Positions 8,878 through 19,157 are shown, counted from the stretch's first letter. The stretch is 32,000 nt of DNA from an uncultured Pseudomonadota bacterium (GCA_963840545.1 CAWIZE010000002.1:1631573-1663572); one strand, 5' to 3'. The notes: generated by a model not told the origin, from the sequence alone. Translations and numbers: made by a program.

Positions 8878-9165
8878 TCAGTCGCGGGAAGAGGACAGTC
8901 CCGCGAGAAGCGGCACGTACGCGGCGCGCCTGCGGGATACGAACTCCGTGAAGAGCCGAACGCGCCTCGTCTTGCGCGTCTCGCCCTGCGTGAGGAGCCA
9001 GAGCGTTCCGTGCATGCGCAGGGCGGTGCCCGGCACCCTCACCAGCAGCGGGTCTGGATCTCCGACGAAGCAAGGCAGCGTCGTCATCCCGAGCCCCTGC
9101 CGCACCGCGACGATCTGCGCCCCGGCGGCCGTGGTCCTGAACGGAACCTCAGCGGTGGGAACCTC
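8878..9165 (-). pseudogene. LysR-family regulator, C-terminal fragment only
   Basis: The tail of ORF 8878..9582 reads ...FRTTAAGAQIVAVRQGLGMTTLPCFVGDPDPLLVRVPGT...LWLLTQGETRKTRRVRLFTEFV, typical of a LysR substrate-binding-domain C-terminus. No HTH or N-terminal half is present. The boundary with the transketolase part is approximate. Confidence 0.6.
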
Positions 9166-9864
9166 ACGTCGCGCGCCGGCGATTTCTTCCTCGCCCGGCG
9201 CATCGCCATGGGCCTTCTGGGTGCCGGCCTTGGTCGGGAAGCCGAAGCCGATGATGGTCTTGCAGGCGATCATGGAGGGCTGGTCGGTCACCGCGCGGGC
9301 GGCGGCGACGGCGTCGCGGATCGCGTCCGTGTCGTGGCCGTCGATCTCCTGCACATGCCAGCCGGAGGCGCGGAAGCGCTCGAGCTCGTGGTCCGAAACC
9401 GCGAGGCTGGTCGGGCCGTCGATGGAGATGGAATGGTTGTCCCAGAAGGCGATGAGGCGGCCGAGCTTGAAGTGGCCCGCCAGGGAAATCGCTTCCTGGC
9501 TGATGCCTTCCATGAGGCAGCCATCGCCCATGAAGACGTAGGTGAAATGTTTGCAGAGATCGTCCCCGAACCTGGCGTTCACGATGCGCTCGGCAAGCGT
9601 GAAGCCGACCGAGTTCGCGATGCCCTGGCCGAGCGGGTCGGCGGTCGTCTCGATGCCGTCGGCATGCCCCTATTCCGGATGGCCGGCGGTCCTGCTGTCG
9701 ATCTGGCGGAACCGCTCCAGCTCGTCCTGGGTCATGTCCTTGACGCCGGTCGGGTAGAGCAGGCTGTAGAGCAGCATCGAGCCGTGGCCGTTCGACAGCA
9801 GGAAGCGGTCGCGGTCGAACCAATGCGGCCCGGCCGCATCGAGGGCCGGGCCGCGGCGGGCCGG
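9166..9864 (-). pseudogene. transketolase internal fragment (roughly residues 45-300) with an in-frame TAG
   Basis: Minus strand reads ...[136 protein letters not shown]...IGFGFPTKAGTQKAHG. The stop (TAG, plus-strand cta at 9670-9672) replaces the conserved Tyr of GHPEYG. The N-terminus and the C-terminal half are absent. Confidence 0.8.
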
Positions 9865-10474: not shown

Positions 10475-11396
10475 TCAGGCGCGGTTGTCGTATTTGCTGT
10501 GGCCTGCGAAATAGCTCGGCCGGTCGAGATCGGGAATGAGGCCGGGCTGTGTCGGGCGCCATCCCAGCCGTTCCTGCGTTTGCGCGCTCGAAGCCGGGCA
10601 GTCGATGCTCACGAAGAACCCGAGAAAGCCGAAATGCCCGGCCGCCTCCGCGGCGGACTTGCCGACGACCGGCAGGTTCAGGCGGCGGCCGATGACGCCG
10701 GCGATGTCGCGGAACGGAACGCCCTCGTCGGCGACCCCGTGATAGCGGGCTCCCGCGGACCCCTTCTCGAGCGCCAGCCTGTAGAGATGGGCAGCATCGA
10801 GCCGGTGGACCGCGGGCCAGCGGTTGAGCCCGTCGCCCACATATGCCGAGACGCCCTTTTCACGCGCGATGCCGATGAGGCGCGGAACGAAGCCGTGATC
10901 GCCGTCACCATGGACGGACGGCGCGAGGCGCAGCAACGACGCGCGGACCCCGCGTGCGGCCAGCGCGGCGGTTGCCACTTCCGAAGCGACGCGGGGAAGC
11001 GCATGGGAGTCGGAACCTAGGCACGATGTCTTCGATGGCGAGGCGGCCTGGCGTAAGGAGGGCGGTCCCGGAGGTGACGATCAAGGGACGGTCGGAGCCT
11101 TCGAGGACGGCGCCGAGCGTCTCGATGGCGCGCCGGTCCATCTCGCAGTTTTCCGCGAACTTCGAAAAATCGTGGTTGAAGGCCGTGTGGATCACGCCAT
11201 CCGACATGGCGGCCCCGCCGCGCAGGCTCTCGAGATCTTCGAGATCGCCGCGATGCGCCGCCGCGCCACCGGCGATGAGAGACTGGGCGCCCGCATCCGA
11301 GCGAGCGAGACCGAGGACCCGATGGCCCGCATTGACGAGCTCCTGAACAATGGCAGAACCGATAAAGCCTGTCGCACCGGTGACGAAGACACGCAT
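10475..11396 (-). pseudogene. NAD(P)-dependent SDR/epimerase-family oxidoreductase, split by a frameshift
   Basis: The N-terminal half ([33 protein letters not shown]...) sits in ORF 10905..11480. The C-terminal half ([46 protein letters not shown]...) sits in ORF 10475..10978 in another frame. The two frames meet around 10980-11025. Confidence 0.7.
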
Positions 11397-11523
11397 CGCG
11401 ACTGATCCCTTGCGCCGTTCGATGGCCGCATGTGCGGCCCTGTGATTGTCGAGATAGGTGATTGAGGGAATACGATCCATGCTGTAAAGTCCGTATTATC
11501 GTCGCAATCGTCCGGGATGGCCC

Positions 11524-12498: not shown

Positions 12499-12552
12499 TC
12501 TGCGCGGTTGGCGGCTGCCCGGAGCGACGGGATGGGGAACGGCTTCTTTTTG

Positions 12553-12611
12553 TTGTGCCGCGCAGCGCCCAAGGGTCCAAGTATGGGGGGGTCCAGGGGC
12601 CCAGCCCCTGG
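12553..12611. repeat. REP-like GC-rich element, copy A (ttgtgccgcgcagcgc ... gggggggtccaggggcccagcccctgg), ending in an 8-bp-stem hairpin
   Basis: Hairpin ccaggggc-cca-gcccctgg at 12593-12611, 3 nt beyond the stop of the 12615..14585 gene. Both modules recur in reverse complement at 19057-19102. Confidence 0.75.
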
Positions 12612-12614
12612 CGG

Positions 12615-14585
12615 TTAGCCGGGTTCCGGGGTTTTCGTGCGGAAGAGCAGGGACCAGCCCTGGACGTCCTGGAGCATGGCGAGCGCGAGGCCGTGGAGGG
12701 TCGCGCCGAGGGCGGATGAGGCGAGGGGGCGGGAGGTGTCGATCGCCTCGAGCTCCTGCGTCGTCTCCGCGAGCACGCGCAGCATCTGTTGGGACTGAAG
12801 GTGGAGGGGGTCGAACTCGGCATAGGCGCGCAGGCTGACGAAGCCGGCCGAGAGCGCGGCGAGCGTCGTGCAGGCGAAGCCGAGCCAGCGCTCCGCGCCG
12901 GCGCCTTCGGCGGCGTGGAGCCCGCCGTGGAACAGGGCGTGGGCCATGAAGAAAAGCTTGACGAACACGAGCACCAGGGTCGCGGCGAAAGCAAGCTCGC
13001 CAAGGCCGATGAGCCGGCGCGCGGCGACGCGGCTGCGGCGCGCGCGGTCCTGGTGATAGCTGGTCTGCGCGGCGATCGTCTCCGCGCCGATCGCGCGGGC
13101 GCGCGGGACGTGCCCGGCGATCGTGCCGTGCGGCAGCTCCGCCCCGCGCATCGCCGCGCTGACATACCAGGCGACCCAGGCGTCGCGCGGCGGGCCGTGG
13201 GGCTGCGTCTCCGGATGGCGGGCGAGGTCGGCCACCTGGGCGAGCGGCAGCGACCAGCCGAGCCGGGCGAGCATGCGCTGCTTGCGGCACAGCTCGGCGA
13301 GCAGCCGGTAGGCGATCCATCGTTCGTGCCAGCGGCCGAACTCGCTGGCGACGACGATGCAGAAGATGGAGACCAGGGCTGCGAACTCGACGATGGTGGC
13401 AGGCAGGCCGAAGGCCAGGGGCGCGGCCAGCGCCAGGCCCATCGCCGAGACGGTGAGGGCGGCGAGCGCGATGATCAGCACGTAGGAGGAGCGGTAGCGG
13501 TCGGCGTATTTCCGCCCGTGGCGGTCCGCTTCTTCGTGCATCGCGGCCCAGGCGCGCTCGACCGCGTCGGCGGGTTCGGGTGGCTGCTCGGGCGGTGCAG
13601 GCGGCGCAGGCGGGGCGGGCGGGGCGGCGTGGGCCGGCGCGATGCGGTCGAGCGCGCGGGAATAGACGCGCCAGAGGCGCGGCCGCACGCTCTCCTCGCC
13701 TTCCGCGAAATAGTCGGAGAGCGGGTCGCGGCGATGGCCGAGCCGCGCGGCGATCCAGTGCACGGCGGCGCCGACCCAGGTGTGGTGGTGGGGCCCGCCG
13801 GGTGCCGGCGGCGCGATCGTGGCGCGGAGCAGCGCGGCGAGTGCCGCCTCCGCCGCCCGGCCGGCCGGGGCGGAGGCGCGGTGCGCGAGGGACGTCGGGC
13901 CGAGCAGCAGGCGCGGCGGCTGGGCGGCGGCGGGATCGATCCACCACACCGGGACATGGCTGCGCACCGCGTAATGGACGGTCTCCCCGGTGCCGCCGGG
14001 CTTGCCGTGGGCGCCATCCCAGACCGCGATCAGGAGGTCCGCGTTGCGGACGACGAAGCGGCCGACGGCGCGAAAGGACGCCTCCGCGTCCTCGTCGCGC
14101 GCGCCGTCGAGGGCGAGCACCGCGGGGGCGTCGGATTCGGTGCGCGCGGCGGCGAGCAGGGCGCGGAACGGCGCGGGATCTCTGTCGAAGGTTTTTTCGT
14201 AGTCCGCGGCAGGGAAAGGCAGCGGCGCTTCGAGCCGGAGGCCGGCGGCGAGCGCGGCCTCGGCGGCGATGCGGTCGGAGCCCTCGGCGAGCGGGGAGAA
14301 GAGGCGGATGAGCGGCGGGTCGGGCGCGTAGGCCGCCCGGACGGAAGGTTCGGCGGCGAGTGCCGCGATCGTCGTGCGCGCGCGCTGCATGACGGCGGCG
14401 AGCGCATCGGCAAGGGCGGGGAGCGCCGCGGGATCGAGCTTGTTGGGCCGCGCGCCGGTGACCCCGAGGCGGAAGGCGAGCCGGGGCCGGAGGGGGCCGA
14501 GGAAAGGGGGGCCAAGGAAAGGGGGGCCAAGGGAAGGGGGCCCGAGGGAAGGCGGCCCAAGGGAGGATGGTGGCGGAGGCGTCAC
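12615..14585 (-). CDS. SLOG-like (YpsA/DprA/LOG-type Rossmannoid) N-terminal domain fused to two SLATT/DUF4231-like 2TM modules
   Basis: GTG start overlaps the upstream stop (GTGA). N-terminal domain: LGVTGARPNKL...SPLAEGSDRIAAEAALAAG...ADLLIAVWDGAHGKPGGTGETVHYAV. First membrane module: YADRYRSSYVLIIALAALTVSAMGLALAAP...ATIVEFAALVSIFCIVVASEFGRWHERWIAYRLLAE. Second module: QTSYHQDRARRSRVAARRLIGLGELAFAATLVLVFV...WLGFACTTLAALSAGFVSLRAYAEF. Domain names come from motif recognition only. Confidence 0.65.
   Translation of the reverse strand: MTPPPPSSLGPPSLGPPSLGPPFLGPPFLGPLRPRLAFRLGVTGARPNKLDPAALPALADALAAVMQRARTTIAALAAEPSVRAAYAPDPPLIRLFSPLAEGSDRIAAEAALAAGLRLEAPLPFPAADYEKTFDRDPAPFRALLAAARTESDAPAVLALDGARDEDAEASFRAVGRFVVRNADLLIAVWDGAHGKPGGTGETVHYAVRSHVPVWWIDPAAAQPPRLLLGPTSLAHRASAPAGRAAEAALAALLRATIAPPAPGGPHHHTWVGAAVHWIAARLGHRRDPLSDYFAEGEESVRPRLWRVYSRALDRIAPAHAAPPAPPAPPAPPEQPPEPADAVERAWAAMHEEADRHGRKYADRYRSSYVLIIALAALTVSAMGLALAAPLAFGLPATIVEFAALVSIFCIVVASEFGRWHERWIAYRLLAELCRKQRMLARLGWSLPLAQVADLARHPETQPHGPPRDAWVAWYVSAAMRGAELPHGTIAGHVPRARAIGAETIAAQTSYHQDRARRSRVAARRLIGLGELAFAATLVLVFVKLFFMAHALFHGGLHAAEGAGAERWLGFACTTLAALSAGFVSLRAYAEFDPLHLQSQQMLRVLAETTQELEAIDTSRPLASSALGATLHGLALAMLQDVQGWSLLFRTKTPEPG
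14492..14566. repeat. 15-bp in-frame tandem repeat, 5 units, encoding (S/F)LGPP x5 at the N-terminus of the SLOG-SLATT protein
   Basis: Units 14492-14506, 14507-14521, 14522-14536, 14537-14551 and 14552-14566 (gggggccRaggRaag and variants). No alternative start codon lies downstream of the repeat, so it must be translated. Confidence 0.9.
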
Positions 14586-16591
14586 GCGGGCGCCTCATTC
14601 AGCCAGGCCTCGACCGCCCAGGCTTCGACCGCAGCAGCGGCGCGGGGGAATTGCTCGGCGATATGCTGGAGATCGCGCGGCGCGGCGCGCGCGAGGCCGC
14701 GGGCGTGGATGGCGAGCGCGGCGGTCGCGGCCAGCGCCTCCGCCGCCCGCCAGGCGGGCTCGTCGGCGATGTCGATCTCGATCAGCGCGATCTCCTCGGG
14801 AGCGATGGGCGTGGCGGGTGGATGGGCGGGATCCATGCACACGAGGCGGCGGACGGCGCGGCCGGCCTCGCCGGCGATGCGGGGGATTTTCGCGACCGCG
14901 CCGAGATTGTAGGCGCGCGCGGGCGGGGGCAGCGCCTCCCAGTCCACGAGCTGAGGATGCGTCTTTGCGGCCTCGTCGCGCACCGGGCCGTGACGCCATC
15001 CCGCGGCGATGAGGTCGAGGCGCCAGCGATGGTGCTCGGCGCGCGCCATCCGCTCGATCTCGGCCTCCCGCAGGGTGGCGCTGGGCCCAGGGCCGGCGGC
15101 GAGGCGGAGGCCGGCGTGGCCGAGCTTGACCGGAATATGGTCGGCGAAGGCGCGGTTGGCGCGGCGGAAGCGCTCGGCGAGCTGCTCCCAGGGCACGGCG
15201 GCGGGCGCGTCCCGATCCGGGTTCGAGGCCAGGAAATCCTCGTGCACCGCGCGGGCCATGCGGTCCGCCTCGGCCTCGAAGAGCTGCGCCGGCCCGACCA
15301 GGGAGGCGAGGTCGCCGAACCCGCCGAGCCGCTCGGGGCAGAGCGGGCGCGCCGCCATCCGCCCGAGGAGCTCGCTGAGGCCGCGCTCCTGGCGGGTGCG
15401 GACATGGATCGGGGTTGCGAAGCGGCGCTGGCGATCGAGCGCGTCGCGGAGGCCGAAGGCGGCCTCGAGCGCGGCATCGTCGCGGCCGAGCGCGACGATC
15501 ACCGCGGCGGGCGGGCGGGCGGCGAGGTCGGCCTCGATCGCCTGCCACTCGGTGGTCCGGCCCCATTCGTCCGGCGGGCCGAACCAGGCCGGGCGGATCT
15601 CGAGATCGAGGCATTGGCGGAGATGCCGCCCCCAGGGCGACGCGGCGAGCACGGCGGCGCGCGCCTCGGCGTCGCGGTCATAGGCGAGGATGTCGACGCG
15701 CGTGTCCGGCAGCGCGAAGGTCGAGAGGGCGGCGTGGCGGAGGATCGCGACGCCGAGATCGCCGAGGCCGGCGAGGACGATGCGCGGGCGGGCGCCGGCG
15801 GTGCGGACGAAGCCCGCCCCGCCGAGCAGCCGGCGCGCCGAGACCTCCTCGGTGCGGAGCGGATGGACGAGCAGGCCGGGGTCGAAGATTCCCGTGGGCG
15901 GCACCGCCATCGCGTCGATCAGCCAGGGGGCGCGGATCTCGGGGCGCGCGAGGAGGGGCGCCGCGCCGCCGGCGGCCGCGGTTCGCCGGGCGGTGCGCGC
16001 GCCGGCGGCCATCACGATGTCGAGGTTGGTGGCGTCCGAGCCGGTCGTCGCGACCAGCGCGCGCGCCCGGGTGATCCCGGCATGCTCGAGCGTCTCGGTG
16101 CGGGTCGCGTCCCCGCTCAGCACCGGCACGCCGAGGCGATCGCAGAGCGCGATCGCCGCGGCCGCATCCTCGCGCGTGATCGCGACGGCCTTGAGCCCGG
16201 CGCGCTTGAGGCCGCGGACGACCTCGATCCCGGTTTCGCCGAGGCCGCAGACCACCACGTGCCCGCGCATGGCCTGGGCGCGCGCGAGCTGCGCGTCGTG
16301 GCGGAGGTTGTGCACGAAGAGCGAGATGCTGCCCATCAGCCCGGCCAGCACCAGGACCACGAACATCAGGGACTGCGCCGCCACGAGCAGGAACGGAGCA
16401 TGGCCGAAGGGGAAGGATTGCTCGCCGCGGACGAGGAAAATCGTGTCGATCAGCGCGGGCTCGAGCCCCTGTCCGCAATAGGGGTGGCCGTGGCAGGTCA
16501 TGAAGCCGACCAGGCCGAGCGCGGTTGCGAGCAGGGCGAGCAGGGCGACCGGCGCCCATTGCCCGAGCCGGTAGATGCGGAGGCTCAGCAC
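14582..16591 (-). CDS. membrane protein: 2 TM helices + two Rossmann (TrkA-N/RCK-like) domains + RyR domain
   Basis: GxGxxG motifs: HVVVCGLGETGIEVVRGLKRAGLKAVAITRED and RIVLAGLGDLGVAILRHA...DILAYDRD. RyR-domain signature: IERMARAEHHRWRLDLIAAGWRHGPVRDEAAKTHPQLVDWEALPPPARAYNLGAVAKIP. The preferred start is the GTG at 16591, 17 nt after the upstream stop. The track's ATG at 16741 would overlap the upstream gene by 133 nt. Confidence 0.7.
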   Translation of the reverse strand: MLSLRIYRLGQWAPVALLALLATALGLVGFMTCHGHPYCGQGLEPALIDTIFLVRGEQSFPFGHAPFLLVAAQSLMFVVLVLAGLMGSISLFVHNLRHDAQLARAQAMRGHVVVCGLGETGIEVVRGLKRAGLKAVAITREDAAAAIALCDRLGVPVLSGDATRTETLEHAGITRARALVATTGSDATNLDIVMAAGARTARRTAAAGGAAPLLARPEIRAPWLIDAMAVPPTGIFDPGLLVHPLRTEEVSARRLLGGAGFVRTAGARPRIVLAGLGDLGVAILRHAALSTFALPDTRVDILAYDRDAEARAAVLAASPWGRHLRQCLDLEIRPAWFGPPDEWGRTTEWQAIEADLAARPPAAVIVALGRDDAALEAAFGLRDALDRQRRFATPIHVRTRQERGLSELLGRMAARPLCPERLGGFGDLASLVGPAQLFEAEADRMARAVHEDFLASNPDRDAPAAVPWEQLAERFRRANRAFADHIPVKLGHAGLRLAAGPGPSATLREAEIERMARAEHHRWRLDLIAAGWRHGPVRDEAAKTHPQLVDWEALPPPARAYNLGAVAKIPRIAGEAGRAVRRLVCMDPAHPPATPIAPEEIALIEIDIADEPAWRAAEALAATAALAIHARGLARAAPRDLQHIAEQFPRAAAAVEAWAVEAWLNEAPA

Positions 16592-16608
16592 CGACGCCCC
16601 GGCTGTCG

Positions 16609-18000
16609 CTATGGCCCGAGGATCGAGATCACGCTCGGGGCCGGCAAGGTTTTCGCCGAGGTGTTGAGTGCGAGAAGCTGGAGCACGATCTCCATCACCT
16701 CGGACGAGCGGTCGGCGCCGGAAGGATCGATCGAGATGCAATAGCGCGTGCCGTCATAGGCGACGCCGATCTCGCCCGCGATGCCGGTGCAGTCCTCCCG
16801 CACCAGGAACAGCCGGTCGGTTCCGAGCCCGGTGCCGATCTGCGGCGGCGCGAGCCTCTGGCTGACGCCGATATCGAGCTCGCCGCGCGCCAGCTCGCCG
16901 AGATAATAGATGATGCCCTCGACCGAGCGGACGGTGAAATTGACCTGCAACGTCACGGTCCGGGTCGTGCCGTCGGCAGTGCGGACCAGGGCGGGAAAAC
17001 AATTCGCCGGCTCGGCATAGGCGTGGCGCTCGGTGGCCTTCATCCGGAGATAGGGCGACGCGCCGCAGCGCTCGGCGGCGGCCTCCACGGCGCCGGCGGA
17101 GGCGCCAAGCGGCGGGCCGATGATCGTATCGCCGGGCGGCAGCACGCCGAGCGCGATGAGCGTCCGGCTCGCCGCCGGCAGGGCCTGGAGATCGGGATCG
17201 ATGCAGAACCGGCTCTCCCGGGTCGTCTGCTGGAGGCGGAAATATTCCGTCACGCCGCGGCGGGCGAGCTCGGCCTTCTCGCTCGCCGTGAGATCGGGGT
17301 CGGAGGTCGTGGTGAAGCGCTTGAGCGCGGCGCCCTCGGCCAGTGGCGCCAGCGCGCGCAGGCTCGCGATATCCGCCGCGGGAATCGGCGGGCCGACATT
17401 GGTGATGGTCTTGACCACCTCGGAGCTGAGGCCAAGATCGGCGAGCGCGCCGACCACCTGCTCGAAATTGCTGTAATGGTCGCCGAAATAGTTATTGTAG
17501 AAGGCCAGCGGCGTATCGTCGTTCAAGGCGATGTCGATGCGGCCGATCACCAGGGTGAGCAGCAACGCCTTCGGGAAGCCCTGCTCGAGGTAATAGTCGA
17601 TGCTGGTGATCGGGATCGGAGAGAGGATGCCCTGGTAGAATTCCTGCGTGTCGAGATTGGCGACGCTGAAGGCCTGGGTGCCGCTGAGCGTGGCCGCCGG
17701 GCTTGCCGTGTCGGCGTGGGGGAAGGTGGCCGGGCTCGGGCTGAAGGGCAAACTGAAGGCGGCGGTACCGGAGAGCGAGGTCTGGCCCGTGACCTGCGTG
17801 AAATCGGTGAACTGCAGCGGCTCGCGATAGGCGGCGCGCATCACGTTGAGCATCAGCACGCTCTCCTTGATGTCCTCCGCCTGCTGGTTGTAGGCGATCG
17901 CGCGCGGAGCGAAGTAGTCGACGACCTCGCAGCCGGTGAGCGCGAGCAGCGCAGGCAGCAGAAGCAGGGCGATTGGCCCCCATCGCCTTCTCTTCCCCAT
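16609..18000 (-). CDS. lipoprotein of unknown function (no family recognised)
   Basis: MGKRRRWGPIALLLLPALLALTGC is a basic n-region, a hydrophobic core and an L-T-G-C lipobox. The mature part has 5 further Cys residues and no TM segment. It is the first gene of the three-gene operon. Confidence 0.75.
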   Translation of the reverse strand: MGKRRRWGPIALLLLPALLALTGCEVVDYFAPRAIAYNQQAEDIKESVLMLNVMRAAYREPLQFTDFTQVTGQTSLSGTAAFSLPFSPSPATFPHADTASPAATLSGTQAFSVANLDTQEFYQGILSPIPITSIDYYLEQGFPKALLLTLVIGRIDIALNDDTPLAFYNNYFGDHYSNFEQVVGALADLGLSSEVVKTITNVGPPIPAADIASLRALAPLAEGAALKRFTTTSDPDLTASEKAELARRGVTEYFRLQQTTRESRFCIDPDLQALPAASRTLIALGVLPPGDTIIGPPLGASAGAVEAAAERCGASPYLRMKATERHAYAEPANCFPALVRTADGTTRTVTLQVNFTVRSVEGIIYYLGELARGELDIGVSQRLAPPQIGTGLGTDRLFLVREDCTGIAGEIGVAYDGTRYCISIDPSGADRSSEVMEIVLQLLALNTSAKTLPAPSVISILGP

Positions 18001-18330: not shown

Positions 18331-19032
18331 GTGAGCGCGATTCCCTATCGCGCCGCGCTGATCGTCGGCGCCGGCACGGGCATCAGCGCCTCGCTCGCCC
18401 GCGCCCTCGCCGCCGCGGGCCTCGGCGTCGGGCTCGCCGCGCGCAACGTGGAAAAACTCGCCCCGCTCGCCGCCGCGACCGGGGCCCATCTCTTCGCCGC
18501 CGACGCGGCGGACGCGGACGAGGTGGCGCGGCTTTTCGCCGCCGCCGAGGCGAAGCTCGGCACGCCGGATGTCGTCATCTACAACGCCTCGGCGCGCGCC
18601 CAGGGCTCGCTCGTCGAGCTCGATCCCGAGGCGGTGCGCCGAGCGATCGCCGTCACCGCGTTCGGCGGCTTCCTCGTCGCCCGCGAGGCCGCACGGCGCA
18701 TGGTGCCGCGCGGCAGCGGCGCGATCTTCTTCACCGGCGCGACCGCGAGCGTGAAAGGCTTCTCCGGATCGGCAGCCTTCGCGATGGGAAAATTCGCGCT
18801 GCGCGGGCTGGCCGAGAGCGCGGCGCGCGAGCTCGGGCCGAAAGCCATCCACGTCGCCCACTTCGTGATCGACGGCGCGGTGCGCAGCGCACGCCGCCCC
18901 GACCCGCCCGAGCGGCCGGACAGCACGCTCGACCCCGACGCGATCGCCGGGGTTTATCTCGCGACGCTCGCCCAGCCGCGCAGCGCCTGGGCCTTCGAGG
19001 TTGCGCTCCGGCCCTGGGTCGAGAGCTTCTGA
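18331..19032 (+). CDS. short-chain dehydrogenase/reductase (SDR) family oxidoreductase
   Basis: GTG start. ALIVGAGTGISASLARALAAAG (TGxxxGxG-like)...NASA...TGATASVKGFSGSAAFAMGKFALRGLAES (YxxxK position carried by M/K variants). Confidence 0.8.
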   Translation: MSAIPYRAALIVGAGTGISASLARALAAAGLGVGLAARNVEKLAPLAAATGAHLFAADAADADEVARLFAAAEAKLGTPDVVIYNASARAQGSLVELDPEAVRRAIAVTAFGGFLVAREAARRMVPRGSGAIFFTGATASVKGFSGSAAFAMGKFALRGLAESAARELGPKAIHVAHFVIDGAVRSARRPDPPERPDSTLDPDAIAGVYLATLAQPRSAWAFEVALRPWVESF

Positions 19033-19157
19033 CCAGGTCCAGGGGCCGGGCCCCTGCCAGGGGCTGGGCCCCTGGACCCCCCAAATGCGCTGCGCGGCAC
19101 AAGGTTGCTGCGCGGCACAGGATACGGGGGTCCAGGGCCCCAGGCCCTGGTGGGGGC
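19033..19157. repeat. composite REP-like element, copy B: about 125 bp, imperfect palindrome built from three GC hairpins and a duplicated gctgcgcggcac core
   Basis: Hairpins caggggcc-g-ggcccctg (19041-19057), ccaggggc-tgg-gcccctgg (19057-19075) and ccagggcc-cca-ggccctgg (19132-19150). The core gctgcgcggcac occurs at 19089-19100 and 19107-19118. The element fills the whole convergent intergenic gap. Confidence 0.8.

Follow-up and report, generated by a model that had tools for sequence, protein, structure and literature searches.

A lipoprotein, an RCK-RyR protein and a SLOG-SLATT protein encoded in one bacterial operon: a candidate nucleotide-sensing membrane module associated with TIR and STAND genes in its relatives

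Introduction

The general logic by which a signal made by a TIR protein acts on a membrane effector is already known, and the closest described systems are of the Thoeris type. In a survey of TIR systems (10.64898/2025.12.03.692087), the introduction names SLOG as the receiver of 3' cyclic ADP-ribose (3'cADPR) in the type I Thoeris effector ThsA, and a TIR protein (ThsB) together with the SLATT effector ThsH is described as type VII Thoeris, for which the signal is canonical cyclic ADP-ribose (cADPR). On the viral side, a May 2026 preprint reported that RyDEP of phage DyoEdafos, a protein with a ryanodine receptor (RyR) domain of family PF02026, is a glycosidase for 2'cADPR and 3'cADPR, and that other phage RyR-domain proteins are nanomolar-affinity sponges for the same molecules (PMC13232231). 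Here we describe three minus-strand genes, g1, g2 and g3, within positions 12615-18000 of a 32,000-nucleotide (nt) stretch of DNA from an uncultured Pseudomonadota bacterium (GCA_963840545.1 CAWIZE010000002.1:1631573-1663572; GC content ~70%), hereafter the window. They encode a lipoprotein, a channel-like protein with RCK and RyR domains, and a protein that joins a SLOG-fold sensor to a SLATT-like membrane part. We hold with moderate confidence that this trio is a nucleotide-sensing, membrane-permeabilizing sensor/effector module of a TIR/STAND (anti-phage, Thoeris-like) system, present here without its TIR.

Organization of the operon

The three genes form one operon, and they are co-directional and tightly packed, as a preliminary description of the window had stated. 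Their features, with coordinates counted from the first nucleotide of the window, are as follows (aa, amino acids; TM, transmembrane):

16609-18000, minus strand: g1, a 463-aa open reading frame (ORF) with an ATG start at 18000, encoding a secreted lipoprotein whose fold found no match
17929-18000, minus strand: g1 signal peptide and lipobox, aa 1-24 with Cys24; hydrophobic segment at residues 9-27, from the sequence and the family alignment
14582-16591, minus strand: g2, 669 aa, GTG start, a 2TM channel-like protein with RCK, RCK-like and RyR domains
16313-16549, minus strand: g2 membrane part, with TM1 at aa 15-33, a periplasmic loop with a Cys pair and a helix, and TM2 at aa 75-93, from hydropathy
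15998-16258, minus strand: g2 RCK/TrkA_N domain, aa 112-198, with a GLGETG nucleotide-binding loop, from Pfam and PDB matches
15392-15799, minus strand: probable second Rossmann-like (RCK2-like) region of g2, ~aa 265-400, with a GLGDLG loop; boundaries approximate
14882-15268, minus strand: g2 RyR (R12-type) domain, ~aa 442-570, with H520, W523, H545 and N562, from Pfam RyR and hhalign
14582-14585, minus strand: GTGA overlap of the g2 stop (TGA, 14584-14582) with the g3 start (GTG, 14585-14583), from the sequence
12615-14585, minus strand: g3, 656 aa, GTG start, a SLOG-fold sensor with a four-TM SLATT-like membrane part
14492-14562, minus strand: 15-bp tandem repeat, 4.7 copies with 89% matches, encoding PPSLG/PPFLG at the g3 N-terminus, from Tandem Repeats Finder
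13896-14477, minus strand: g3 SLOG-fold Rossmannoid domain, aa 37-230, motifs GVTGxR, SPLAEGxDR and GGTxE, from AlphaFold2 and Foldseek
13266-13550, minus strand: first 2TM module of g3, aa 346-440, helix RWHERWIxYRLLAELCRKQ, SLATT/DUF4231-like, from Pfam and NCBIfam
12636-13109, minus strand: second 2TM helical module of g3, aa 493-650, with AlphaFold2 helices at 493-552, 563-589, 591-614 and 622-650 and a TM segment at 531-549
18331-19032, plus strand: short-chain dehydrogenase (SDR) gene

The ATG of g1 is preceded by GAGGGGG, and its stop (TAG, 16611-16609) is separated by 17 nt from the GTG at 16591 that starts g2. This start is supported because the N-terminus (M..L.IYRL..W) is conserved in 22 homologues and an independent gene call of 669 aa (P0241) is 100% identical to g2; a TTG at 16741 was rejected, as it would overlap g1 by 133 nt and the homologues begin at the position of the GTG. 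The 4-nt GTGA overlap was confirmed from the sequence and, read as such, is a predicted translational coupling of g2 and g3 that is preserved in the window. The start of g3 is fixed, as no other in-frame start occurs before Met66, and the alignment with its homologues begins near residue 31, ahead of the first conserved strand RLAFRLGVTGAR. All three frames have a high-GC coding signature, with a third-position GC content of 0.89-0.91. No terminator-like site was found at either gene junction, those elsewhere in the scan being at chance level, and a promoter scan of the window found none. The nearest homologues of all three genes are in Acetobacteraceae metagenome-assembled genomes (MAGs), at 70-82% identity, and on this ground the window is probably of Acetobacteraceae origin. 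The claim that every product is associated with the envelope also stood, with an LTGC lipobox in g1, two TM helices in g2 and four in g3, the fourth being weaker by hydropathy and in the AlphaFold2 model.

Comparison with described systems

Type VII Thoeris and the loci of the trio have in common a TIR gene and a SLATT-type multi-TM protein predicted to breach the membrane on binding a TIR-made ADP-ribose (ADPR) derivative. By description, however, g3 is set apart from ThsH by its N-terminal SLOG-fold sensor and second 2TM module, the trio adds an RCK-RyR channel-like protein and a lipoprotein, and the TIR linked to it comes with an nSTAND1-Sel1 NTPase; in the window, a TIR is absent. With type I (ThsA, SIR2-SLOG) and type III (several TIRs and a SLOG effector) Thoeris, the likeness lies in a SLOG domain as the receiver, in g3 a candidate one, of a TIR-made cADPR isomer, and several TIR genes adjoin the module in one related locus (L006), as in type III. 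Where ThsA has SIR2 as its output domain, g3 is predicted to act through membrane helices; none of the PADLOC Thoeris models matches it, and in Foldseek its SLOG domain is structurally nearest to DprA and ShosA. The 2TM/SLATT effectors of cyclic-oligonucleotide-based anti-phage signaling systems (CBASS) and the SLOG-SLATT fusions, the latter reportedly described by Burroughs et al. in 2015, rest on the same concept of a nucleotide sensor fused to a 2TM pore-forming module, but no cyclase or SMODS gene accompanies the trio.

The preliminary description could match this combination to no characterized defense, transport or signaling system, and our searches agree, as no system of this composition was found in PADLOC, NCBIfam or the literature. 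No RyR or TrkA partner appears in the available text and supplementary tables of the survey of TIR systems (10.64898/2025.12.03.692087). In the literature, we found no paper linking SLATT with RyR domains in bacteria and nothing relevant on an RyR domain with TrkA.

TIR and STAND genes beside related operons

In five metagenomic or MAG loci with orthologous trios of 53-74% identity (L011, L014, L027, L090 and L092; related loci are given L numbers here), TIR and nSTAND1-Sel1 genes lie upstream of g1 and divergent from it, and the same divergent layout beside g1 was found in L095, L097 and L098. The neighboring TIR is a 470-490-aa TIR_2 protein (E=1.3e-14) with an additional DUF4062 match, and the neighboring NTPase is an nSTAND1 protein of 1,060-1,400 aa (E=2.9e-97) with 11 Sel1 repeats. 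No effector domain is fused to the nSTAND1-Sel1 protein, and the TIR is a separate gene. The Acetobacteraceae TIRs keep a W-x-x-x-E-L segment, which we take to hold the catalytic Glu of TIR NADases. L090 is syntenic with the window, since both have SGL, BKACE and 3HCDH genes to one side and a VTT/LssY_C gene to the other.

Similar neighbors occur in other arrangements. At ~30% identity, L140 has g2, a SIR2_2-TIR_2 gene and an nSTAND1-TPR gene, all divergent from g1. In L079, g3 and g2 are followed by a TIR-TM protein, in L166 a MAP3K_TRAF_bd/TPR-S gene is followed by a TIR, and L006 carries two TIR genes besides a convergent patatin gene; a TIR, an nSTAND gene or both lie nearby in L071 and L047. 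We also scanned the neighbors within ~10 kb of g3 in 79 species-level loci, and as only a handful of seed proteins was used, the resulting counts are lower bounds. A TIR-like neighbor was found at 27 or more of the 79 loci and an nSTAND1-like neighbor also at no fewer than 27, with patatin at 8 or more and MAP3K_TRAF_bd likewise at 8 or more; at least 42 have one or another of these four. A Bradyrhizobium g3 is carried on a mobile element beside MobA, TraD and AlpA, followed by a TIR-nSTAND1-CHASE2 protein.

Some of the TIRs have an additional feature, as those of L079 (13856-15070) and L006 (11130-12410 and 12514-13704) carry a hydrophobic segment, GGxxGGAVVLGGLGWLL, after the TIR domain, which suggests that they are membrane-anchored.

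The RyR domain of g2

In g2, the domain matches Pfam PF02026 with E=3.2e-10 (40.6 bits against a cut-off of 27.4), and the g2 family profile matches animal RyRs at ~1e-37 and the Bacteroides RyR-like protein 3NRT at 2.6e-16. RyDEP (gene 78 of MN234187) is related to g2 both in BLASTP (E=3e-8, 52% identity over a 33-residue core) and in hhalign against the g2 family (probability 96.6%, E=6.8e-10). The reported ligand contacts of RyDEP are H75, W78, H100 and D117, the last being the catalytic acid (PMC13232231), and their equivalents in g2 are as follows:

RyDEP H75: g2 H520, His in 23/23 family members
RyDEP W78: g2 W523, Trp in 22/23 family members
RyDEP H100: g2 H545, His in 20/23 family members
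RyDEP D117 (catalytic acid): g2 N562, Asn in 18/23, Asp in 4/23 and Val in 1/23 family members

With the binding residues kept and Asn in the place of D117, g2 probably binds an ADPR-type ligand without cleaving it, which by analogy with the phage protein would be a sensor-like profile. The two proteins share the PF02026 family and the equivalents of H75, W78 and H100, but RyDEP is a small soluble viral anti-defense glycosidase or sponge, whereas g2 is a host membrane protein of 669 aa in which the RyR domain forms one module, with Asn in place of the catalytic Asp117. The earlier statement that bacterial RyR domains are functionally uncharacterized has been superseded by the demonstration that phage RyR domains bind or cleave 2'/3'cADPR (PMC13232231).

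Phage DyoEdafos (L174, 10387-10803) also encodes a small protein annotated as DprA-like, with a SLOG-superfamily fold, which recalls the pairing of SLOG and RyR in the trio.

Channel-like architecture of g2

The first RCK domain of g2 was recovered as TrkA_N in Pfam (E=2.6e-16, above the curated cut-off), and its PDB matches include GsuK, TrkA and MthK, with KefC also among the closest. Residues 68-194 of g2 are collinear with GsuK 83-210, which covers the inner helix and RCK1, and residues 89-194 with MthK 94-196. By this alignment, g2 is built like an RCK-gated 2TM channel, with RCK directly after the inner TM helix. The second Rossmann-like region is presumably RCK2-like; G275 of its G-x-G-x-x-G motif is invariant and G277 nearly so in the family alignment, GsuK matches g2 in two stretches, and the g2 homologue of L166 has a weak NAD-fold match at residues 263-315. 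In the family alignment, a C-x(5-8)-C pair is conserved within the periplasmic loop.

With GsuK (4GX5) and MthK, g2 thus shares an RCK domain placed directly after TM2, and with GsuK also two Rossmann-type domains, but it lacks the TVGYG filter and adds the periplasmic Cys pair, the RyR domain and a C-terminal extension. We rejected g2 as a K+ channel because a T[VI]GYG filter is absent from residues 1-100, as read from the sequence with no dedicated motif search run, and because Pfam gave no Ion_trans_2 match in g2. The original label for g2, a 2TM/RCK/RyR protein, was borne out for the two TM helices, TrkA_N and RyR, and said too little in leaving out the RCK-gated 2TM channel build.

Two RCK-RyR relatives of g2, P0264 (818 aa) and P0268 (804 aa), have C-terminal extensions of ~200 aa, and that of P0268 aligns in order with the SLOG motifs of g3 (VGxxxxx, SxxxxGAE and ADLLCAV; E=0.026, probability 2%). 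An RCK-RyR-SLOG fusion is conceivable here, but the hhalign matches of the P0268 and P0264 extensions to the g3 profile (E=0.026 and 0.069, probability <2%) are too weak to use.

The SLOG-SLATT protein g3

The AlphaFold2 model of g3 has a mean predicted local distance difference test score (pLDDT) of 90.5 and a predicted TM-score of 0.89. In Foldseek, it matched ShosA (8zva), DprA (3uqz and 5mll), the LOG-family protein TM1055 (1rcu) and a MoCo carrier protein (2iz7) with probabilities of 0.97-1.0 and E-values of only 0.01-0.3, the latter because the query was the whole 656-aa model; TRPM2 is among the weak matches (rank 20, probability 0.06). Across 40 family sequences, P98, L99, A100, G102 and D104 of the SPLAEGxDR motif are invariant, as are G197 and G198 of GGT, and T199 is kept in >90%. 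These motifs fit what we take to be the glycine-rich ligand loops of SLOG domains, a GxAxGxD-type loop after strand 2 and a GGxGT-type loop after strand 4. The g3 family profile found only chance matches among PDB sequences, and since no curated SLOG profile matches, we regard the modeled N-terminal domain as a SLOG-fold family of its own, outside those already named.

The C-terminal half of the model is wholly helical and contains two 2TM hairpins, with TM helices at 369-387, 394-412 and 531-549 and a weaker fourth at ~565-587 by hydropathy and AlphaFold2. The first hairpin region matches NCBIfam SLATT_1 with E=1.2e-6 (28.5 bits against a cut-off of 41), and a DUF4231 match at E<=0.01 recurs in 22/40 family members (best 1.8e-7), with SLATT_1 and SLATT_3 in 2 each. 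The second module (aa 493-650) gave no hidden Markov model (HMM) match; from the repeated architecture of the model, it is possibly a divergent second SLATT unit. Profile support for the domains first proposed is therefore uneven: RyR and TrkA_N lie above the Pfam cut-offs, SLATT is borderline and recurs in the family, and SLOG is matched at the level of the fold and by no profile.

The PPSLG/PPFLG repeat at the N-terminus of g3 is found only in this genome and is absent from 39/39 aligned homologues. Residues 1-26 have pLDDT <50 and are disordered, and as the repeat keeps the reading frame, it could vary by slippage.

In L004/L005 (11513-14221) and in L037, which are Rhodoblastus-like, a 902-aa protein combines a patatin phospholipase domain with a region like the SLATT-like part of g3 (28% identity to aa 286-525). 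Its neighbors are genes for a g3 homologue, a g1-like lipoprotein, a TIR_2 protein and a MAP3K_TRAF_bd/TPR-S protein.

The lipoprotein g1

The lipobox of g1, LTGC (LLALTGC), fits the pattern [LVI][ASTVI][GAS]C, and Cys24 is kept in >90% of 39 family members, in whose alignment two further Cys are invariant. Searches of g1 against Pfam, NCBIfam and PADLOC gave no match even at E<=1, and its family profile found only chance matches among PDB sequences. The AlphaFold2 model (pLDDT 78.9) had nothing above a probability of 0.2 in Foldseek against PDB and BFVD, a set of predicted viral structures. The family is large: among representatives of clusters at 50% identity, 3,812 match at E<=1e-3 and 1,184 at E<=1e-30.

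Distant members of the family (27-31% identity) have other neighbors. Some adjoin Crp-like regulators that bind cyclic nucleotide monophosphates together with guanylate cyclases (L010, L121 and five more loci), and others, at the same range of identity, adjoin thiamine pyrophosphate (TPP)-enzyme genes (11 loci, e.g., L126).

Conservation of the trio

Relatives of g3 are widespread, as no fewer than 545 stretches in a collection of species-representative genomes encode one, and they span Alphaproteobacteria, Acidobacteria, Bacteroidetes, Planctomycetota, Gemmatimonadetes, Firmicutes and other groups. Three arrangements of the full trio were found. The order of the window, g1-g2-g3, is kept in at least nine Acetobacteraceae loci at 53-82% identity to the window; the order g3-g1-g2 occurs in L006 and L099 (38-45% identity); and in L163 and L166, g1-g3 is accompanied by a convergent g2 (26-32% identity). 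The g3 homologue of L166 aligns with the g3 family profile with an hhalign probability of 99.9% (E=3.5e-32). The trio is therefore conserved well beyond close relatives, as the preliminary description proposed to examine, with L006/L099 at 38-45% and L163/L166 at 26-31% identity. GC contents range from 0.43 to 0.73, and this range together with the three gene orders argues for functional linkage rather than mere inheritance.

Partial sets are also found. g3 and g2 occur without g1 in an alphaproteobacterium (L079), two Terracidiphilus (L087 and L088) and Thermincola (L072), so that the g2-g3 pair recurs in Acidobacteria and Firmicutes, and TrkA_N and RyR were confirmed in each checked g2 of these pairs. 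g1 and g2 occur without g3 in L091, L096, L135, L139, L140 and L149. In L091 (12170-12743), a 70%-identical relative, a BrnT toxin and helix-turn-helix antitoxin pair stands in place of g3.

State of the trio in the window

The absence of a signal generator, as first described, was confirmed for the window by its gene content and by tblastn, in which the TIR, nSTAND1 and patatin proteins of the relatives found nothing better than E=0.58 in the 32 kb. This absence is a derived state of the lineage and not a property of the system. The SDR gene at 18331-19032 (plus strand) occupies the position and relative strand that TIR_2 and nSTAND1-Sel1 have in L090, L092, L011 and others. An SDR gene likewise adjoins g1 in the closest relative, L093 (80-82% identity), on whose short contig no TIR lies beside g1.

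All three ORFs of the window are full length and contain every family-invariant residue. The ratio of non-synonymous to synonymous substitution rates (dN/dS) for the three genes is 0.28-0.31 against L093 and 0.24-0.34, the same range, against TIR-bearing relatives, all of these ratios being probably inflated by strong codon bias. The trio in the window is under purifying selection and is not decaying. Given intact ORFs under such selection, the module still does something, most plausibly answering a signal made elsewhere.

GC-rich palindromic elements resembling repetitive extragenic palindromic (REP) sequences lie at 12550-12612 and 19040-19150, with a core GGGCCCCTGGACCCC and a GCGCTGCGCGGCAC arm; there are three, against 0.27 expected by chance, in inverted orientation on both sides of the g3-g2-g1-SDR block, and are possible traces of the rearrangement by which TIR and nSTAND1 were replaced. 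At 8878-9582 and 10475-11480 (both minus strand), a Transketolase_N fragment (profile positions 137-276) is fused to a LysR_substrate fragment in one ORF and an epimerase/NmrA-like gene is apparently split between two frames, which looks like pseudogene debris near the operon.

Proposed mechanism and alternative explanations

The preliminary description had offered two possibilities, a module that responds to a nucleotide made elsewhere and an envelope-stress-gated channel complex, and the first is favored by the TIR and nSTAND1 genes upstream of g1 in syntenic relatives. In the complete system of these relatives, the nSTAND1-Sel1 NTPase would detect an invader and activate the adjacent TIR protein, which would turn NAD+ into a signal derived from ADP-ribose, for example an isomer of cADPR. 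Two domains predicted to be cytoplasmic, SLOG in g3 and the R12-type RyR domain in g2, would read this signal, and by analogy with their families they are the candidate receivers of a TIR product; the RCK domains of g2 may contribute an input from NAD(H) or an adenine nucleotide. Ligand binding would then open or assemble the membrane parts of both proteins, in g3 the SLATT-like helices and in g2 a channel-like 2TM pore that lacks a filter, so that the inner membrane would be depolarized or permeabilized and growth would stop before the phage cycle is complete. Anchored at the periplasmic face, g1 may have a structural or regulatory part to play at the periplasmic loops of the other two proteins, perhaps at the Cys-containing loop of g2. 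In the window, where TIR and STAND are absent, the trio would probably answer a signal made elsewhere in the genome or an endogenous NAD-derived nucleotide. The analysis itself shows the gene structure, the assignment of domains and folds, the co-conservation, the linkage to TIR/STAND in relatives, the kept RyR ligand residues and the purifying selection. The identity of the ligand, the choice of the pore-forming protein, the role of g1 and the anti-phage function are what we infer.

Several observations weigh against this proposal. The three genes are one form of a modular set and do not make up an obligate unit, since most g3 homologues occur without g1 or g2, most g1 homologues occur without g2 and g3, and L091 and L096 have lost g3 and keep g1 and g2. 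With the seed queries used, no TIR was detectable at the g2-g3 pairs of L072, L087, L088, L056 and L077. In the window, no TIR, cyclase, STAND or other defense gene lies within 12-14 kb on either side and the neighbors are housekeeping genes, and the trio may therefore do something else in this genome. At the level of the proteins, no PADLOC model is matched by g1, g2 or g3; no SLOG-type profile of Pfam or NCBIfam matches g3 at E<=1, or any of 40 family members at E<=0.01; and the DUF4231 match of g3 (E=3.9e-5, 24.5 bits) falls just under the Pfam cut-off of 24.7.

A further objection concerns the TIR itself. STAND NTPases with TIR effectors act as self-contained systems (Avs and bacterial NLR-like systems), and a TIR beside a STAND NTPase could be such an NADase system merely located next to the trio. 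The TIR-nSTAND1 pair and the trio would then be two independent systems that often share defense islands, the TIR depleting NAD as the effector of the STAND sensor and making no signal for the trio, which would be autonomous with its own trigger. The survey of TIR systems discards such TIRs, the window as well as L093, L091 and L096 keep g1-g2(-g3) with no adjoining TIR, purifying selection persists in its absence, and the divergent layout in eight Acetobacteraceae loci could reflect vertical inheritance alone. We nevertheless judge this account unlikely, as the same parts recur in non-homologous arrangements at ~30% identity (L140, L079, L166, L006 and L071), which makes inheritance or chance improbable. 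In addition, SLOG and RyR both come from families shown to bind TIR products, and the nSTAND1-Sel1 protein has no fused effector, with the TIR as a separate gene.

The trio might instead be a physiological ion-channel complex, in which cellular NAD(H), ATP or ADPR would tune g2 as an RCK-gated cation channel, with g3 and the lipoprotein as accessories, and which would serve K+/cation homeostasis or envelope/osmotic stress rather than immunity. The kinship of the g2 RCK domain with GsuK, TrkA, MthK and KefC would suit this role, as would the housekeeping genes around the trio, the solitary g2 homologue among transporter and metabolic genes in L008/L009, and the intact, selected state of the genes. 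The absence of a K+ selectivity filter from g2, the patchy distribution and variable gene order, the repeated presence of TIR, nSTAND1, patatin and MAP3K_TRAF_bd/TPR-S among the neighbors, the Bradyrhizobium mobile element with MobA, TraD and AlpA, and the standing of SLATT-type proteins as cell-killing effectors all point elsewhere, and we think a purely physiological role quite unlikely.

It is also conceivable that g2 acts within a TIR-linked system as a buffer or off-switch, its RyR domain sequestering (or, in the Asp variants, hydrolyzing) a cADPR-type signal, so that g2 would set the activation threshold and guard the host from premature firing of the g3 effector. Phage RyR-domain proteins are sponges or glycosidases of this kind, g2 keeps the binding residues, 4/23 family members have Asp at the catalytic-acid position, and the many g3 homologues that occur without g2 suggest that it is accessory. 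A pure sponge, however, needs neither two TM helices nor two RCK-like domains in a gated-channel arrangement, and the persistence of g1 and g2 where g3 has been lost (L091, L096, L135, L139 and L140) implies an output of its own for g2, which leaves the buffer role with little probability. Finally, that the window trio is a functionless relic of a TIR-nSTAND1 deletion or replacement, as the SDR gene in the place of TIR and nSTAND1, the flanking REP-like elements, the nearby decay (a transketolase/LysR fragment and a possibly frameshifted epimerase) and the loss of g3 in sister lineages might suggest, is highly improbable, given three full-length ORFs with all family-invariant residues, dN/dS no higher against the SDR-bearing L093 than against TIR-bearing relatives, and preserved translational coupling.

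Implications

If a TIR/STAND-linked sensor/effector module is indeed what the trio represents, it would be a new multi-component membrane effector for TIR signaling, coupled to a STAND sensor. The new elements are the three-protein membrane module, the host RyR-domain protein, the SLOG-fold family fused to two SLATT-like units, the lipoprotein without a known fold, and the coupling to nSTAND1. It would also give a bacterial RyR-domain protein its first host-side role, only phage anti-defense versions having been characterized previously. Independently of function, the analysis brings to light a large lipoprotein family (more than 3,800 clusters at 50% identity) that neither Pfam nor NCBIfam covers with a model and that lacks structural relatives.

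RyR R12 and SLOG would here be combined in one TIR-linked apparatus, and these are domains of animal Ca2+ channels responsive to cADPR or ADPR, so that cADPR sensing by R12 would become testable in bacteria. TRPM2 carries an N-terminal SLOG-type region (MHR1/2) and ryanodine receptors carry R12; the trio has both types of cytoplasmic domain on membrane-permeating proteins, and its type of locus is linked to TIR, the enzyme class that makes cADPR-type signals. The pore domains, however, are unrelated, and the bacterial proteins are small and separate, their ligands being predicted by analogy. We offer as a speculation, and a doubtful one, that the five-gene system (TIR, nSTAND1, lipoprotein, RCK-RyR and SLOG-SLATT) is a bacterial forerunner of eukaryotic ADPR/cADPR-gated cation signaling. 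Equally tentative is the mechanism that goes with it, in which a TIR-made cADPR isomer would be read directly by the R12-type RyR and SLOG domains on two membrane-permeating proteins. Were this so, R12 would be an ancestral cADPR receptor, and the system would provide a tractable bacterial model for the long-disputed action of cADPR on ryanodine receptors. For the bacterium of the window, the finding would mean that an effector module is still under selection after the neighboring signal generator was lost, which raises the question of signals made elsewhere in its genome.

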